A stretch of 61,170 nt of DNA, counting the filler. It is 5 parts of 5 records of this genome, joined end to end, with 100 filler letters (N's around TTAATTAATTAA, not from the genome) between each part and the next. Parts side by side here need not be neighbours in the genome. Positions count along the whole stretch, not along the records: positions 44,363 to 50,023 come from SRR16203515_4789; 4 more parts are not named here. One strand, given 5' to 3'. Below the pieces are notes generated by a model. That model was not told the DNA's origin, made no database searches, and saw nothing but the letters and a program-made list of their open reading frames with translations. Below, piece after piece: positions 25,653 through 50,123 of this stretch. The number at the start of each line of letters is the position of its first letter. Within the stretch, counting starts at the first letter, position 1. A program made the position numbers and the translations under genes.

Positions 25653-25752
25653 NNNNNNNNNNNNNNNNNNNNNNNNNNNNNNNNNNNNNNNNNNNNTTAA
25701 TTAATTAANNNNNNNNNNNNNNNNNNNNNNNNNNNNNNNNNNNNNNNNNNNN
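25653..25752. other. Artificial contig spacer
   Basis: 44 N + TTAATTAATTAA (stops in all six frames) + 44 N. Confidence 0.99.
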
Positions 25753-37649: not shown

Positions 37650-37749
37650 NNNNNNNNNNNNNNNNNNNNNNNNNNNNNNNNNNNNNNNNNNNNTTAATTA
37701 ATTAANNNNNNNNNNNNNNNNNNNNNNNNNNNNNNNNNNNNNNNNNNNN
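37650..37749. other. Artificial contig spacer
   Basis: N44-TTAATTAATTAA-N44. Confidence 0.99.
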
Positions 37750-44262: not shown

Positions 44263-44362
44263 NNNNNNNNNNNNNNNNNNNNNNNNNNNNNNNNNNNNNN
44301 NNNNNNTTAATTAATTAANNNNNNNNNNNNNNNNNNNNNNNNNNNNNNNNNNNNNNNNNNNN
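44263..44362. other. Artificial contig spacer
   Basis: N44-TTAATTAATTAA-N44. Confidence 0.99.
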
Positions 44363-45109
44363 TGAGCGAAGTGTGGTGAGTGTTTGGCTCATCACTTCTT
44401 TATCAAATGCGCTGCGCCCTTGCTCAGAATAGCTAATTTTAACGACCTGTAAGTTGCCATTAGTTGATGTGGTTGTAGTGAGGTTTTCAAAACGGCTTTT
44501 AAGCTCTTTTATGACAACTGTTAGCTTATCGCCAGCATTCTCAAGCGCACTTATTTCAAAGCCCTGATTAGTCTGCTTCGCTTTAACGCCATAGGCTTTT
44601 TGCTTAACAATAATGGCTTTTGTTTGTTGATATGCACTGAGCAATTGCTCATCAATGGCTTTATTTAAATCAACATCAAGTACAAACAATACCCCGCCGT
44701 TTAAATCAAGACCCAGCTTTATAGGCGATAAGCCAAACTCTTGTAACCAAATAGGGCTGGTTGCATGTTCAACAATTTTAACCTGTGTATTTGGAAAGTT
44801 TGATTTTAAAGCCGCCTGAGCTTGGGCACTTTGTGTAGGTGTATTTAAAAGTACATTAATATTTGCTTGGTCTTTTAAACTTTCACTCACTTCAAAACCT
44901 TGGCTATTTAAAAAGCTAACTAGGTTTTCAGTACTTGGCATTACTTGCGTTTTAACATCAGAAGCTGCACTAATATGCAACCATGACTTATTCGGATATA
45001 AATTAGGTAAGGCGCTTATTGCTAGTAAAACCAATACAATCAACATGGCTACATAGCTTAATTTAAATTTAGCCTTAAATTGCTTTTTATCTTTTTTTAG
45101 ACTTAACAT
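44363..45109 (-). CDS. secD: Protein translocase subunit SecD, likely second paralog (3' truncated)
   Basis: TM1 ending ALPNLY, then IKLGLDLNGGVLFVLDVD; no yajC upstream. Confidence 0.92.
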
Positions 45110-45112
45110 AGT

Positions 45113-45216
45113 TATTCCTTATTACTCGGCATAGCCCAGTAACGTACCTATTAGGCACAATTAATCTGCAGGTCAAAACGCGAAGCGTTAAAACCAATTA
45201 AATTAAATAAGAAACA
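45113..45216 (-). promoter_or_regulatory. SD-sequestering mRNA structure between the vemP-like ORF and secD
   Basis: UGUUUCUUAUU (45216-45206) pairs over 11 bp, with 2 G-U pairs, with AAUAAGGAAUA (45123-45113), which contains the secD Shine-Dalgarno. Confidence 0.7.
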
Positions 45217-45678
45217 TTAAGCGTGGTAGGTGGTTACAGCGGTGTATAACAGGTTAGCGTCTTTCCAGCCGCTCAAGCGCGACTTTTTACTTTTAAATAC
45301 CCAGGTATACCAAGGCTGACTTATGTTGACTGCTTGCGGTCGCAAAAAAATATGCCTACAGCCATTTAGGGCAAAAAACTCATGCACTACATCGTATTCA
45401 GGATCGCCCTGCGCACTGTGTAAAAATAAAAATGAGTTATTGGCTGTTAGCCTAGGTTGATGCGCATCAAAATCAGAATGCTTTGAGTTTTTATGCTGTA
45501 AATCGCCAAGCGATTTTGTAGGTACGGAAATGTTAGTTAAATGGTCAACATTAATAACATCGCTATAACTGCTTTGGTTACTGTTTAATTCGTGCTTTAC
45601 GCCCATAGCATGGCTTTGCACACTAAAGAGTGCAGCAAAAAACAAGCAAGTAGCTAAAAAAACGCGAAATTTAAACAT
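45217..45678 (-). CDS. VemP-like secretion-monitoring translation-arrest peptide
   Basis: Sec signal peptide ending SHA; C-terminal SRLSGWKDANLLYTAVTTYHA similar to Vibrio VemP HRISGWKETNAMYVALNSQFSA (recalled); directly upstream of secD. Confidence 0.8.
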   Translation of the reverse strand: MFKFRVFLATCLFFAALFSVQSHAMGVKHELNSNQSSYSDVINVDHLTNISVPTKSLGDLQHKNSKHSDFDAHQPRLTANNSFLFLHSAQGDPEYDVVHEFFALNGCRHIFLRPQAVNISQPWYTWVFKSKKSRLSGWKDANLLYTAVTTYHA

Positions 45679-45709
45679 TGGTCATTTAAAACTAAAATAA
45701 AGGATAGCT

Positions 45710-45739
45710 AGTATATAAGGGCAGCTAATTAAAATACAA
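45710..45739 (-). promoter_or_regulatory. Candidate sigma70 promoter of the vemP-like/secD unit
   Basis: Minus strand TTGTAT-N18-TATACT; the region is AT-rich, so chance matches are possible. Confidence 0.4.
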
Positions 45740-45791
45740 TAGCAGTTCTTAAGCTAATTAATTTATATAAAAACAAATACTGAGATCCTCG

Positions 45792-47582
45792 ATGCGCTCC
45801 AGACAAAGTTCAGTAAAACGCCCCGACGCCATGAATTTAAAACAAAGCATTCAAACTCTTTGGCCTTACATCACTAAATTTAAAGGCCGTGTGCTGATTG
45901 CCATATTAGCGCTAGTCGGTGCTAAAGGGGCGACATTACTCATGCCATGGGCTTTAAAGGAAATAATTGATTCGGTTGATAAATCAATTAACCCACTACT
46001 ACTCGTCCCTACTTTATTACTCGTTATGTACGGCGCATTGCGCTTTGCTAGCGTATTTTTGGGTGAAGTACGCGATGCAGTATTTTCGCGAGTCACCGAG
46101 CATGCCATGCGAGATATTGGCCTTAAAGTGTTTAAACATTTGCACTCGCTAGATTTAGCCTTTCATTTAGACAGACAAACTGGCGGTATAAGTCGAGACA
46201 TAGAGCGCGGCACCAGTGGCTTAAGCTTTTTAATGCGTTTTTTAATGTTTAATATTGTGCCCACGTTGTTTGAAATAATGACCGTAGCGATTATTTTTGG
46301 CACCTTGTTTTCTATTTGGTTCGCGTTAATCACCCTACTTGCTGTTGCTATTTATATCTTTTTTACGGTGACGGTTACCCAATGGCGAAACCGCTTTATT
46401 CGTGAGTCAAACGCTGCCGACAACCAAAGTAATACCCGCGCCATCGACAGCCTATTAAATTACGAAACCGTAAAGTACTTTAATAATGAACAGTATGAAG
46501 CCAAAACTTACGACACATTTTTAGCAACCTGGGAACAAGCTCGATTAAAAAATAGACTCTCGTTATTGGCGCTTAATTCAGGGCAAGCGCTCATCATTGC
46601 GTGTGCCATAACCGCATTAATGTGGCTTGGAGCCAATGAAGTGGTTACCGGCGAGTTAACGATTGGTGAGCTGGTAATGATCAATGCGTATATGATCCAA
46701 TTATTTTTACCGCTTAACTTCTTGGGATTTGTGTACCGTGAAATACGCCGTGCCCTTACCGACCTTGAAAACATGCTTGGGTTATTAAATACCTCACCCA
46801 AAGTAGCAGATAGCGAAACTGCGCAACCATTAGCACTCAAAAATGGGGCAATTAGCTTTGAAAATGTCAGCTTTAGCTACGATAGTAAACGCCCTATTCT
46901 TAAGAACGTCAGTTTTCATGTAAACCCTGGTGCTAAGGTAGCGGTTGTAGGTGCTAGTGGCGCAGGTAAAAGCTCGTTAGCCCGTTTGTTATATCGTTTT
47001 TATGAACTTTCATCGGGCGCGATTAAAATTGATAATCAAGCCATAAACACAGTCACCTTGGCAAGTTTGCGTAAAGCTATTGCCATAGTGCCGCAAGATA
47101 CTGTGTTATTTAATACCAGCATACGCGAAAATATTCACTACGGCAGACCCAGCGCCAGTGAAGATGAAGTAAACAAAGCCATAAACATGGCGCATCTAAC
47201 AGACTTTATTAATAGCCTAGATAAAGGCGATAAAACCTTAGTCGGTGAACGCGGACTAAAAGTCTCTGGCGGCGAAAAACAACGTATTGCTATTGCTCGC
47301 GCTATTTTAAAGCAATCGCCGATTTTAATTTTTGACGAAGCCACTTCCGCGCTCGACTCACAATCTGAGCAGGCCATATTAAACGCTATGCGAGAAGTAG
47401 CCTCTAACCACACCAGTATTGTTATTGCGCACCGCTTATCAACAATTACCGATGCCGATACTATTATCGTGCTTAAAGCGGGAGAAGTGGTAGAGCAAGG
47501 TAAACATGATAAATTACTCATGCAAAATGGTGAATATGCTCATATGTGGGCATTACAGCAAAAGCAGTCCAAAGCGCAATAA
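45792..47582 (+). CDS. Atm1/ABCB7-type ABC exporter (fused TMD-NBD)
   Basis: FHLDRQTGG, DSLLNYETVKYFNNE, PLNFLGFVYREI, GASGAGKS, SGGEKQR. Confidence 0.92.
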   Translation: MRSRQSSVKRPDAMNLKQSIQTLWPYITKFKGRVLIAILALVGAKGATLLMPWALKEIIDSVDKSINPLLLVPTLLLVMYGALRFASVFLGEVRDAVFSRVTEHAMRDIGLKVFKHLHSLDLAFHLDRQTGGISRDIERGTSGLSFLMRFLMFNIVPTLFEIMTVAIIFGTLFSIWFALITLLAVAIYIFFTVTVTQWRNRFIRESNAADNQSNTRAIDSLLNYETVKYFNNEQYEAKTYDTFLATWEQARLKNRLSLLALNSGQALIIACAITALMWLGANEVVTGELTIGELVMINAYMIQLFLPLNFLGFVYREIRRALTDLENMLGLLNTSPKVADSETAQPLALKNGAISFENVSFSYDSKRPILKNVSFHVNPGAKVAVVGASGAGKSSLARLLYRFYELSSGAIKIDNQAINTVTLASLRKAIAIVPQDTVLFNTSIRENIHYGRPSASEDEVNKAINMAHLTDFINSLDKGDKTLVGERGLKVSGGEKQRIAIARAILKQSPILIFDEATSALDSQSEQAILNAMREVASNHTSIVIAHRLSTITDADTIIVLKAGEVVEQGKHDKLLMQNGEYAHMWALQQKQSKAQ

Positions 47583-47769
47583 ACTAAGCCACTCGGGTAC
47601 AATTTAAGTATCTGAGTGCTATTTTGCTAGTATTTCATTCATCTTATCGACCGGTACGGTTATTCACCTCAAAAGGTTTGTTTGCAGTGAAGTTATCAAT
47701 ACAATCAAGTAGCTATTTTTATAACAAAAATATAACGAATTAAATAACGTGAATTCATAGGGGAAAATA

Positions 47770-49848
47770 ATGAAAAAGAGTTTAATTGCAGCGGCGCTCG
47801 CTGCCACATTTATTACTGGCTGTTCTGAGCCACAAACAACAAAAACTGAGCAAGTAGCAGCAGTTGCAGAAAAACCACAAGTAACAGAGCAAGCCGAATT
47901 AGGCACGTTTGGGGTTGATTTAACTGCGCGTAACGAAGCTGTAAAACCAGGCGACGATTTCTTCATGTACGCCAGTGGTTCATGGTACGACAACTATGAA
48001 ATGCCAGCAGATAAAACCCGCTACGGTGCATTCTCTGCGCTAGCTGAGCGCAGTGAAGATCGCGTTAAAGAAATTATTGAAGACATTGCAGCACGTGAAA
48101 ACTTAAACGCCGAAGAGCAACTGGTCGCTGACTTTTATAATTCGTACATGGATACCGAGACGCTTAATAAACTTGGTATAACGCCAATTAAGCCGTTGCT
48201 TAACGACATCAATTCGGTTGCCTCAACTGATGATTTGGCAAAAGTATTTGGCCAATCTTGGCTTACGGGTGTGAGTGCACCACTTGGCGGCGGTATGTGG
48301 TTTAACCGTTTAGATCCCAATAAATACGAAATGTCATTAGGCGCAGGTGGCTTAGGCTTACCCGATCGTTCTTACTACCTTGAAGATGCAGAACGTTTTG
48401 TAAAAACCCGTAAAGCGTATGTTGCACATATTGCCGATATGCTTAAATTTGCAGGGGTTGATAATACCACAGAGCGTGCACAAGCGATTTTAGCGCTTGA
48501 AACCAAAATTGCAGAAGGTCATTGGCCACGTGAAAAACGCCGTAATCGTGATTTAACCCTAAACCAAGTAAAACGCGATGAGTTAAGTGCGCAATACCCA
48601 GGATTTAACTGGGATTTATACTTTGCACAAACAGGTTATAAAGTACCACAATTAAATGTATCGCAGCCTGAACCTGTTAAAGCCATGATTGACTTAATCA
48701 ATAACGAAGATTTAAGCGTATGGAAAGACTACCTTACATATCATGCGATTAATGGTAACTCACGACTATTATCTGAAGAAATATTTAACACTAGCTTTGC
48801 CTTTTATGGAAAAGAGTTAAATGGTCAACAAGAACCACGTCCACGCTGGAAACGCGCTATCAGCCAAATGTCTGGCACTAGCTCATTGGGCTTTGCAATT
48901 GGTAAAATTTACGTAGATCGTTATTTCCCTGAGTCATCTAAGCAACAAATGTCTGAGCTTGTTGAAAACTTACGCACAGCACTTGGTGAGCGTATTGATA
49001 ACTTAGATTGGATGGGCGCAGAAACAAAAGTAAATGCGCGTGCAAAATTAGCGGCGTTTGTGCCAAAAATTGGTTACCCAGATGAATGGCAATCTTATGA
49101 AGGCTTAAGCATTAGCAAAAATGACTTAATGGCTAATGTAAAAAATATGCGTGAGTTTTTCCAAGCTGAAAGTGTAGAAAAAGAGCTGAAAAAGACCGAC
49201 CGTAATCGTTGGGGCATGACACCACAACGTGTTAATGCTTACTACAATAGTTCGTTTAACGAAATTGTATTCCCTGCCGCTATACTACAACCGCCGTTTT
49301 TCGATCCAAATGCAGATCCAGCAGTAAACTACGGTGGCATTGGCGCTGTAATTGGCCATGAGATGGGCCATGGCTTTGATGATCAAGGCTCAAAATCTGA
49401 CGCTAACGGCATTCAACGTAACTGGTGGACTGATGAAGATCGTGCTGCTTTTGATGCTAAAGCTGACAAACTGGCGGCTCAGTACAGCAAATATGAGCCA
49501 ATTCCAGGTAACTTTGTAAATGGCCGCAACAGTTTAGGTGAAAATATTGGTGATGTGGGTGGTTTAGCCATGGCTTATCATGCTTACAAACTAAGCTTAA
49601 ATGGTAAAGAAGCACCGGTAATTGACGGTGTAACCGGCGATCAACGTTTCTTCTTAGCATGGGCACAAGTATGGAAAGAAAAACGTACTGAGCAAAGTAT
49701 GTTAAACCAATTACGTGGTGGTACACACGCACCAGGTCGCTTTAGAGCACAAGCGCCTCGTAACCATGATGCTTGGTATAAAGCATTTGATGTAAAACCA
49801 GGCGATGAGTTATACCTACCAGAAGAAGAACGCGTTCGTATTTGGTAA
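47770..49848 (+). CDS. M13 family metallopeptidase lipoprotein (PepO/neprilysin-like)
   Basis: Lipobox FITGC; VNAYY, GHEMGHGFDDQG, GENIGD. Confidence 0.95.
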   Translation: MKKSLIAAALAATFITGCSEPQTTKTEQVAAVAEKPQVTEQAELGTFGVDLTARNEAVKPGDDFFMYASGSWYDNYEMPADKTRYGAFSALAERSEDRVKEIIEDIAARENLNAEEQLVADFYNSYMDTETLNKLGITPIKPLLNDINSVASTDDLAKVFGQSWLTGVSAPLGGGMWFNRLDPNKYEMSLGAGGLGLPDRSYYLEDAERFVKTRKAYVAHIADMLKFAGVDNTTERAQAILALETKIAEGHWPREKRRNRDLTLNQVKRDELSAQYPGFNWDLYFAQTGYKVPQLNVSQPEPVKAMIDLINNEDLSVWKDYLTYHAINGNSRLLSEEIFNTSFAFYGKELNGQQEPRPRWKRAISQMSGTSSLGFAIGKIYVDRYFPESSKQQMSELVENLRTALGERIDNLDWMGAETKVNARAKLAAFVPKIGYPDEWQSYEGLSISKNDLMANVKNMREFFQAESVEKELKKTDRNRWGMTPQRVNAYYNSSFNEIVFPAAILQPPFFDPNADPAVNYGGIGAVIGHEMGHGFDDQGSKSDANGIQRNWWTDEDRAAFDAKADKLAAQYSKYEPIPGNFVNGRNSLGENIGDVGGLAMAYHAYKLSLNGKEAPVIDGVTGDQRFFLAWAQVWKEKRTEQSMLNQLRGGTHAPGRFRAQAPRNHDAWYKAFDVKPGDELYLPEEERVRIW

Positions 49849-49880
49849 TACCTGACAAACGTTCATCGTTTGTAACGAAT

Positions 49881-49913
49881 AAACAGCCCGCTTATGCGGG
49901 TTGTTTTATTTTT
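49881..49913 (+). terminator. Intrinsic terminator after the M13 peptidase
   Basis: AAACAGCCCGC-TTAT-GCGGGTTGTTT followed by a T-rich tract. Confidence 0.85.
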
Positions 49914-50023
49914 GGCTACTAACAATACTTACTAGCCCTACCCCGTATTTACCTTTAGAATATGGGCTTGCAAATTTTTTCAATTATTTATACATATTAA
50001 GGCGAAACGCAGATGGGAAGAGC

Positions 50024-50123
50024 NNNNNNNNNNNNNNNNNNNNNNNNNNNNNNNNNNNNNNNNNNNNTTAATTAATTAANNNNNNNNNNNNNNNNNNNNN
50101 NNNNNNNNNNNNNNNNNNNNNNN
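50024..50123. other. Artificial contig spacer
   Basis: N44-TTAATTAATTAA-N44. Confidence 0.99.

Follow-up and report, generated by a model that had tools for sequence, protein, structure and literature searches.

The 61,170-nucleotide stretch of DNA analyzed here (the window; filler included) carries, on its minus strand, an open reading frame (ORF) of 153 amino acids that ends shortly upstream of a secD gene and that very probably is a genuine Pseudoalteromonas relative of vemP, encoding a VemP-type monitor of protein export. In Vibrio, VemP is a secreted peptide that stalls its own ribosome when export falters and switches on the adjacent SecDF motor, and the structure of its stalled ribosome is among the few solved for arrest peptides. 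Within its genus the gene is nothing unusual, and it belongs to an already defined class rather than being a discovery; the residual interest lies in the T-Y-H ending of the peptide and in a group of relatives linked to S41 peptidases.

The assignment to VemP is based on profile comparisons. No family model for the ORF was found in Pfam or NCBIfam, and a word-indexed search returned 68 relatives among 76 candidates, for which all organisms named were Pseudoalteromonas. Two profiles were used, namely, A1, an alignment of 28 Pseudoalteromonas sequences with identities to the ORF as low as 37%, and A2, a broader profile of 68 sequences. When A2 was compared with the 177,635 distinct sequences of the Protein Data Bank (PDB), the "VemP nascent chain" 5nwy_s ranked first, with an E value of 0.0018 and 89 residues aligned; in this alignment, RISGWKETNAMY was matched to RLSGWKDsNlLY and, over a longer segment, ...HRISGWKETNAMYVALNS was placed against ...sRLSGWKDsNlLYtasit. 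Since A2 ranks this chain first, the homology of the ORF to the studied VemP is established at the profile level. Furthermore, the motif of the ORF, R134-x3-W138-K139-x2-N142-x2-Y145, equals the published VemP consensus RxxxWKxxNxxY, which, as described by Fujiwara et al. (2024, PMC10987492), defined 339 VemP-like sequences from 339 GTDB genomes.

The family extends well beyond Pseudoalteromonas. A search of 1.84 billion representative sequences with A1 retrieved 137 clusters at E values of ≤1e-3, 34 of them at ≤1e-10. Ten clusters were looked up, and five had named organisms: Litorilituus lipolyticus, Aliiglaciecola, Alteromonas sediminis, Vibrio mediterranei/barjaei, and Vibrio renipiscarius/ichthyoenteri. 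The profile reaches the Vibrio clusters P0164 (1.8e-5) and P0180 (1.3e-4). Within Pseudoalteromonas, 90 of 140 species genomes had a match at E values of ≤1e-3. Judged by record titles, loci with a family member were found in Pseudoalteromonas, Colwellia, Litorilituus, Cognaticolwellia, Pseudocolwellia, Thalassotalea, Paraglaciecola, Algicola, Psychromonas, Kangiella, Aliikangiella, Pleionea, and Enterovibrio, as well as in a few metagenome-assembled genomes (MAGs) with doubtful labels (one "Phenylobacterium" and one Endozoicomonas).

The features of the locus are as follows.
45217-45678, minus strand: vemP-like ORF of 153 amino acids with an ATG start; stop codon at 45217-45219 (ORF listing, family alignment A1).
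45607-45678, minus strand: signal peptide, residues 1-24, MFKFRVFLATCLFFAALFSVQSHA (read from the sequence; A1; AlphaFold2 helix 2-19).
45373-45459, minus strand: conserved mid-region block Q74-F102, QPRL..NS..FL...Q..P.Y....EFF (A1).
45244-45279, minus strand: putative arrest-motif core R134-L-S-G-W138-K139-D-A-N142-L-L-Y145 (A1, consensus, VemP chain alignment).
45220-45243, minus strand: C-terminal tail T146-A153, TAVTTYHA (A1; ungapped alignment to VemP Q156/F157).
45226-45228, minus strand: putative P-site codon, Y151.
45223-45225, minus strand: putative A-site codon, H152.
45110-45216, minus strand: spacer of 107 nucleotides with a predicted multi-branch RNA fold; the next ORF starts at 45109.
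44363-45109, minus strand: secD, a secD2-type paralogue, first 249 codons before the contig end (Pfam, NCBIfam).

The window consists of five contigs joined by N44-TTAATTAATTAA-N44 linkers (25653-25752, 37650-37749, 44263-44362, and 50024-50123), and the ORF is on the fourth (44363-50023; 5,661 nucleotides; guanine-plus-cytosine [GC] content, 0.406). This contig is 95.35% identical over 5,316 nucleotides to chromosome 1 of Pseudoalteromonas sp. RW-H-Ap-1 (locus L001) and, judged by sequence similarity, is of Pseudoalteromonas origin. Position 44363 is a contig edge and not a gene end, because the contig end cuts secD; the operon of L001 is complete and collinear, with the ORF (153 amino acids), 107 nucleotides, secD (612 amino acids), and secF (311 amino acids). 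A preliminary description of this DNA had read an ORF of 153 amino acids with the N terminus MFKFRVFLATCLFFAALFSVQSHA and the C terminus ...SRLSGWKDANLLYTAVTTYHA, which the ORF listing reproduces exactly. It had also placed the end of the ORF 107 nucleotides before a secD with no yajC in front. Both statements hold: the spacer occupies 45110-45216, the following gene matches SecD-TM1 of Pfam (2.3e-10) and has the SecD model NF009545 as its best NCBIfam match, and the neighbor beyond the ORF, on its upstream side, is a divergent ABC transporter and not yajC (Pfam, collinear locus L001). As the same description had expected, such genes are annotated as hypothetical, a name that every named homologue bears in public sources.

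The protein has the layout of a secreted peptide with a conserved end. The signal peptide contains the basic residues K3 and R5, an uncharged core at positions 6 to 20, and S-H-A ahead of the likely cleavage site (by inspection), and all 28 rows of A1 have M1, R5, A16, and F18. Conservation in this alignment is concentrated at the C terminus, in the last 20 residues, where K132, R134, S136, G137, W138, K139, D140, N142, L143, Y145, and Y151 are invariant and T150 and H152 nearly so. The protein also has a spacer of about 127 residues; the mid-region block has four invariant residues (P93, Y95, E100, and F102) and nine nearly invariant ones (Q74, R76, L77, N81, S82, F85, L86, Q90, and F101). 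This block has an Arg ahead of a hydrophobic stretch and might play a role like that of the hydrophobic segment and Arg-85 of VemP, to which its profile alignment is of low confidence. AlphaFold2, run with the 28-row alignment, predicted no globular fold (mean predicted local distance difference test score, 54.2; predicted template modeling score, 0.16). Besides the helix of the signal peptide (2-19), the model has a helix of four residues (108-111) and, at the C terminus, one of low confidence (141-151), which is predicted roughly where VemP is helical in the tunnel. The closest genome has a Tyr in place of the near-invariant His at the putative A-site position: the 99%-identical relative (L001:4451-4459) ends with ...TTYYA, and the window (45220-45228) with ...TTYHA.

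To place the ORF in the register of VemP, no gap is needed: R139, W143, K144, N147, and Y150 of VemP correspond to R134, W138, K139, N142, and Y145 of the ORF, and N154, Q156, and F157 correspond to T149, Y151, and H152. In the stalled VemP-ribosome complex, as described in PMC5449182, R139 stacks on A752, W143 stacks on R92 of uL22, K144 bonds to U747, and Y150 stacks on C2610, N154 keeps U2506 and U2585 in an inactive state, and the stall occurs between Gln156 (P site) and Phe157 (A site). According to this alignment, the mid-tunnel contact residues are all kept in the ORF, and the residue that silences the catalytic center is replaced. The preliminary description had given the Vibrio arrest segment and aligned it to the ORF without gaps; the segment agrees with the PDB VemP chain (...DHRISGWKETNAMYVALNS) and with the printed motif HRIXGWKETNAMYVXLNXX (PMC7897499), and the five tunnel-contact residues pair as it had indicated. 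Its remark that the peptidyl-transferase end diverges (VTTYH versus LNSQF) is correct and applies to most of the family, and the conservation of the motif and the linkage to secD among homologs to which it had looked are both found, as invariance in A1 and as secD at 78 of 80 loci.

We then surveyed the tails of 135 of the 137 representatives (two fragments were left out), 106 of which have the strict motif. Tyr is present at position +6 after the motif Tyr in 68 of these 106 sequences, and, of the 105 sequences long enough to have a +7 residue, 54 have His there. The tail has 7 residues in 28 sequences and 8 in 65 (93 of 106 together), and it has at least 7 in 105 of 106. A tail of constant length, reaching +7 in nearly all ORFs, would suit a ribosome that stops with the +6 codon (Tyr151) in the P site and the +7 codon (His152) in the A site, and we infer this register.

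Genomic context was analyzed in a scan of one genome per species, which yielded 303 pattern matches, 116 of them confirmed; the counts that follow refer to the best 80 of these 116. A secD gene was found downstream and on the same strand at 78 of the 80 loci, 67 to 513 nucleotides away by extrapolation, and secF was next after secD at 76. The two loci without secD were L022, which is cut 133 nucleotides past the ORF, and L043, which has an S41 peptidase instead. The genome of L001 contains a second locus, tgt-yajC-secD-secF, whose SecD (619 amino acids) is 41% identical to the VemP-linked SecD. In a maximum-likelihood tree of 21 SecD proteins (IQ-TREE), 14 VemP-linked and 6 housekeeping sequences, which by their record titles come from six families, were split by a branch with 100/100 support, and the VemP-linked set included two sequences from Enterovibrio (Vibrionaceae). 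Given this split, the downstream gene is a true secD2-type paralogue that has been inherited together with its leader. NCBIfam model NF009545 cannot separate the paralogues, since the linked (score of 710) and housekeeping (642) proteins are both below its cut-off of 728. Two SecD sequences stand apart. (i) Enterovibrio nigricans (L122; G435:C49:5666-7405) has a third, long-branched SecD that belongs to neither group and lies on the VemP-linked side of the tree. (ii) The linked secD of Colwellia piezophila (L033; G432:C7:13200-14968) matches in two pieces, open frames of 397 and 228 amino acids, with one TAA inside the second; this may reflect a disrupted secD2 or a fault of the assembly.

The spacer is predicted to hide the secD start. 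The region 45095-45275 (minus strand) folds at -46 kcal/mol (z, -2.41; 2 of 200 shuffles as stable). In the predicted fold, an anti-Shine-Dalgarno strand, GUUUCUUAU (45207-45215), which begins 2 nucleotides past the stop codon of the ORF, pairs with AUAAGGAAU (45114-45122), which holds the Shine-Dalgarno sequence of secD. An outer helix would be formed by GCUUAA (45217-45222; last codon and stop) and UUAAGU (45101-45106; secD codons 2 and 3), and three hairpins are predicted between the outer paired strands of the spacer fold. RNAalifold applied to the window and nine Pseudoalteromonas loci gave the same structure as the single-sequence fold. In this consensus of 10 sequences, 92.6% of the cells were paired, compared with 33.7 to 46.8% when the partners were slid, and 12 of 33 pairs had a compensatory change, a number reached by none of 500 shuffles; these values come from only ten related sequences and from a structure derived from the same alignment, and the Shine-Dalgarno helix hardly varies in the clade. 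Between clades, both strands change together: examples are CUUCCUUC/GGAAGGAAG and UUCUUCC/GGAAGAA, with AAUUCAUCA/UGAUGAAU in Colwelliaceae and CGUUCUC/GAGAACG in Paraglaciecola. In place of a weak duplex-energy shuffle test, position was tested at 75 loci whose spacers are distinct. The 12-nucleotide window most complementary to the secD start begins between -6 and +8 nucleotides of the stop end in 47 of the 75 loci, with a uniform expectation of 5.7, a count that is not a probability because the loci are related. Neither a terminator-like site nor an Rfam family was found in the spacer.

A hint as to transcription comes from a metatranscriptome contig of run X14 (2,459 nucleotides; 58 differences), which covers 44363-45681 (secD, the spacer, and the ORF) without a break; the run gives zero cover of the divergent promoter region at 45727-45788. 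The contig ends, with adapter letters, 3 nucleotides before the ATG and is compatible with a single ORF-secD transcript and a very short leader. The messenger RNA (mRNA) may be leaderless or nearly so. The ATG of the ORF has no Shine-Dalgarno-like sequence in front of it (45676-45681, minus strand), and a sigma-70 scan of the minus strand found no promoter.

These data lead us to propose the following mechanism. A single mRNA would carry the ORF, the 107-nucleotide spacer, and secD-secF, the second and yajC-less paralogue. At rest, the segment from the last sense codon to about 12 nucleotides past the stop would pair with the Shine-Dalgarno sequence and start region of secD, and SecDF2 would be poorly translated. 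During synthesis of the C terminus, R134, W138, K139, N142, and Y145 would touch the exit tunnel at its constriction, like their counterparts in Vibrio VemP, and elongation would stall, probably at the step where Tyr151 fills the P site and His152-tRNA the A site. In that register, about 12 nucleotides separate the P-site codon from the first post-stop nucleotide, which would lie where the mRNA enters its channel, and the ribosome, once stalled, would occupy the 5' strand of the helix and free the secD start site. Engagement of the signal peptide and a pull on the chain through the translocon would end the arrest, after which the helix would re-form. Poor export would consequently raise SecDF2, because it is the pull of export that is proposed to end the arrest and restore the helix. 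The arrest itself, the stall codon, the release by pulling force, and the physiological trigger are all deduced from the comparison with VemP and the locus. Low Na+, which had been suggested as a trigger, was dropped because none of the data concern the ion that either SecDF copy uses.

The alternative that survives best, which we regard as possible but on the whole unlikely, is that the ORF is a VemP homologue that stalls at another point or by another mechanism with the same regulatory outcome, the opening of the secD start. The stall could, for instance, occur with His152 in the P site or during termination, when the A site holds the stop codon, the contact of N154 could be replaced by T-Y-H, or, in an end-anchored register, Tyr151 could be in the A site. 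It would agree with such a stall that T150, Y151, and H152 are conserved while the position equivalent to N154 varies, that 28 of the 105 motif-bearing representatives reaching +7 end right after the His (..TYH-stop), and that more of the anti-Shine-Dalgarno strand would lie under a ribosome positioned one or two codons later. However, the ungapped alignment from the tunnel-contact residues sets Tyr151 at the position of Q156, the count from K139 to Y151 is the same as that from K144 to Q156, and the reading frame reaches the His codon in 105 of 106 ORFs, in keeping with an A-site role of that codon.

We consider it improbable that the locus relies on ordinary translational coupling, in which the passage or termination of a ribosome opens the secD start without an export-sensitive arrest and the C terminus serves, for example, to bind SecDF or a periplasmic partner. 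The anti-Shine-Dalgarno strand is right at the stop codon, which is the position that simple coupling needs too, and in the literature found, no arrest is reported for non-Vibrio members. On the other hand, the conserved residues are those that touch the ribosomal tunnel in VemP, conservation is focused on the last 20 residues with a tail fixed at 7 to 8 residues, AlphaFold2 predicts no folded domain for the mature protein, and the Vibrio motif is described as necessary for arrest and secD2 induction (PMC7793623). That the ORF encodes an ordinary small secreted or periplasmic protein beside secDF with a chance resemblance to VemP, a view suggested by homologues that are all named hypothetical and by the lack of a Pfam or NCBIfam model, is hardly credible against a VemP chain as the best PDB profile match, the adjacent secD at 78 of 80 loci over several families, the coinheritance of the leader with a distinct SecD paralogue clade, and the conserved RNA pairing.

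A number of points weigh against a VemP-type monitor at this locus. (i) Of the 15 positions that the Vibrio motif HRIxGWKETNAMYVxLNxx specifies, the ORF matches only six (R, G, W, K, N, and Y), and neither N154 nor the P/A-site pair Q156/F157 of VemP is conserved; the stalling chemistry at the catalytic center is therefore not transferable by homology. This long motif marks the Vibrio subgroup and not the broader class of Fujiwara et al. (2024). (ii) The z of -2.41 of the single-sequence fold is modest, and the duplex-energy shuffle test gave a median z of -1.06, with z below -2 in 17 of 77 loci, although this test is weak because any pyrimidine-rich shuffle pairs with the purine-rich start region. 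In addition, the leading edge of a ribosome stalled at Tyr151 would get no further than about the first post-stop nucleotides, and it would open the outer helix directly but the anti-Shine-Dalgarno helix only at its base. (iii) The counts of 78 of 80 and 47 of 75 are not independent events, since the loci are related to each other. (iv) Contigs cannot prove a single transcript, and the RNA-labeled runs X1 and X2 were not used as support because they cover the promoter region too and are possibly DNA. (v) The secD of the window is incomplete, and a second secDF copy was seen only in the 95%-identical relative. (vi) No experiments on the ORF of the window or on any non-Vibrio member were found in the literature.

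Comparison with known systems places the ORF closest to VemP of Vibrio alginolyticus (vemP-secD2-secF2; PDB 5NWY). Both are secreted leaders (about 155 residues in VemP) with a signal peptide and a spacer (about 130 residues in VemP), both have the R, G-W-K, N, and Y of the tunnel constriction contacts and seven to nine residues from the motif Tyr to the stop, and both lie directly upstream of a yajC-less secD-secF, the SecD of the ORF being in the same paralogue clade as the Enterovibrio copy. Masking of the secD ribosome-binding site by an RNA structure, known for VemP, is predicted for the ORF. In contrast, overall identity is low and the relationship was found by profile only (E value of 0.0018), T149, Y151, and H152 stand in place of N154, Q156, and F157, the ORF has one residue fewer past the motif, and the host is Pseudoalteromonas. 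The arrest-cancellation elements, which for VemP are described as a short hydrophobic segment, Arg-85 three residues later, and an (Hphi)xP motif (PMC11470409), are not clearly recognizable in the same order in the ORF.

The ORF also has all features by which the Methods of Fujiwara et al. (2024) define the VemP-like class, that is, it is an upstream ORF (uORF) of secDF with a localization signal and the consensus motif, and its spacer of 127 is near the median of 133 given for that class. The main text of that article (PMC10987492) names no VemP-like taxa besides Vibrio, and VemP is described elsewhere as "specifically conserved among Vibrio species" (PMC11470409). Literature searches for VemP together with Alteromonadales found nothing, those for VemP-like, homolog, ortholog, or family named no taxa outside the Vibrionaceae in the portions of the articles available, and one match for VemP with Pseudoalteromonas was false, arising from the author name Vempala. 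Another secreted uORF before secDF2 in marine Alteromonadales is uDF_RQH_Enterobacterales of Alteromonas naphthalenivorans, which, as reported by Fujiwara et al. (2024, PMC10987492), was found by experiment to stall and to induce secDF2 through the opening of a stem-loop that masks the Shine-Dalgarno sequence; unlike the ORF, it has a proline-dependent R-G-P-P motif, as described there, and sequence homology is absent. The regulatory logic of SecM of Escherichia coli (secM-secA) is likewise similar, with a secreted leader, a C-terminal arrest, the opening of a Shine-Dalgarno-masking stem-loop, and release by export, whereas its target is secA, its motif FxxxxWIxxxxGIRAGP is unrelated, and its nascent chain is extended rather than helical.

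The remaining contigs of the window differ from the one that bears the ORF. Contigs 1 to 3 have GC contents of 0.49 to 0.53, and contig 3 shares 98% identity with genome G001, in which no match to the ORF was found and which is kin only of the contigs of about 50% GC. Contig 5 (GC content of 0.404) is similar to the RW-H-Ap-1 genome only in patches of 65 to 86% identity. Since contig 3 resembles G001 and contig 4 resembles Pseudoalteromonas, the assembly mixes at least two organisms, and the ORF is in the Pseudoalteromonas part.

Two sets of relatives depart from the common form. In three Pseudoalteromonas genomes (G090, G055, and G050), secD-linked leaders (L129, L130, and L132, respectively) have a homologous body and a drifted motif, ending with ...NGFIDNCKPANLTFKGSLNFAS or ...HGFIDACKPANLVYKARLTYHA. 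This form, GFIDxCKPANLxY/F, has lost the Arg and the Trp and has kept N..Y, with TYHA in one case, and it may be either a decayed motif or an alternative arrest motif; L129 and L130 also contain a lipobox-like AAAC within the signal peptide. The second set is linked to peptidases. A Colwellia MAG (L043:3980-5506) encodes a VemP-like ORF ending with ...PPWFCFIGLSKKSRLSGWKESNLLYKAKLIYQS, 84 nucleotides upstream of a secreted Peptidase_S41 (Pfam, 3.7e-24) and not of secD. A profile of this S41-linked subfamily (A4), searched in 301 genomes of the same family-level group, matched in 55. An S41 peptidase was present 24 to 84 nucleotides downstream at 12 of the 12 best loci (L087-L098), and the next 18 were ordinary secD-linked genes; a further S41-linked member, with a spacer of 160 nucleotides, was found in a Pseudoalteromonas species genome (L131). 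These proteins have an N-terminal hydrophobic segment and a second hydrophobic stretch, followed by PPPW[FY]...S[RK]xSGWKxSNL[LQ]YKAKLTY..., and in many of the loci the post-stop nucleotides are predicted to pair with the peptidase start region. No literature on arrest peptides before S41 peptidases was found in a search that was uninformative, as "s41" matched journal digital object identifiers.

We regard it as possible, though less likely than not, that the T-Y-H ending is the majority form of a large VemP superfamily and the Vibrio N-S-Q-F ending a minority form, that T-Y-H may silence the peptidyl-transferase center in another way (Tyr in the P site, His-tRNA in the A site, and nothing equivalent to Asn154), and that the module has been redeployed to secreted S41 peptidases in a sister subfamily that shares the motif, the tail length, and the post-stop pairing. 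If the last of these is true, VemP-type monitors would control more than the Sec motor. For annotation, the data mean that genes now called hypothetical could be named and that the secDF genes downstream of them could be marked as a second, regulated copy. In several families of marine gammaproteobacteria, the relatives keep the half of the motif that contacts the tunnel, and the half on the catalytic side is a different, conserved T-Y-H; comparison of this form with that of Vibrio could part the sensing of force in the middle of the tunnel from the block of peptide bond formation.

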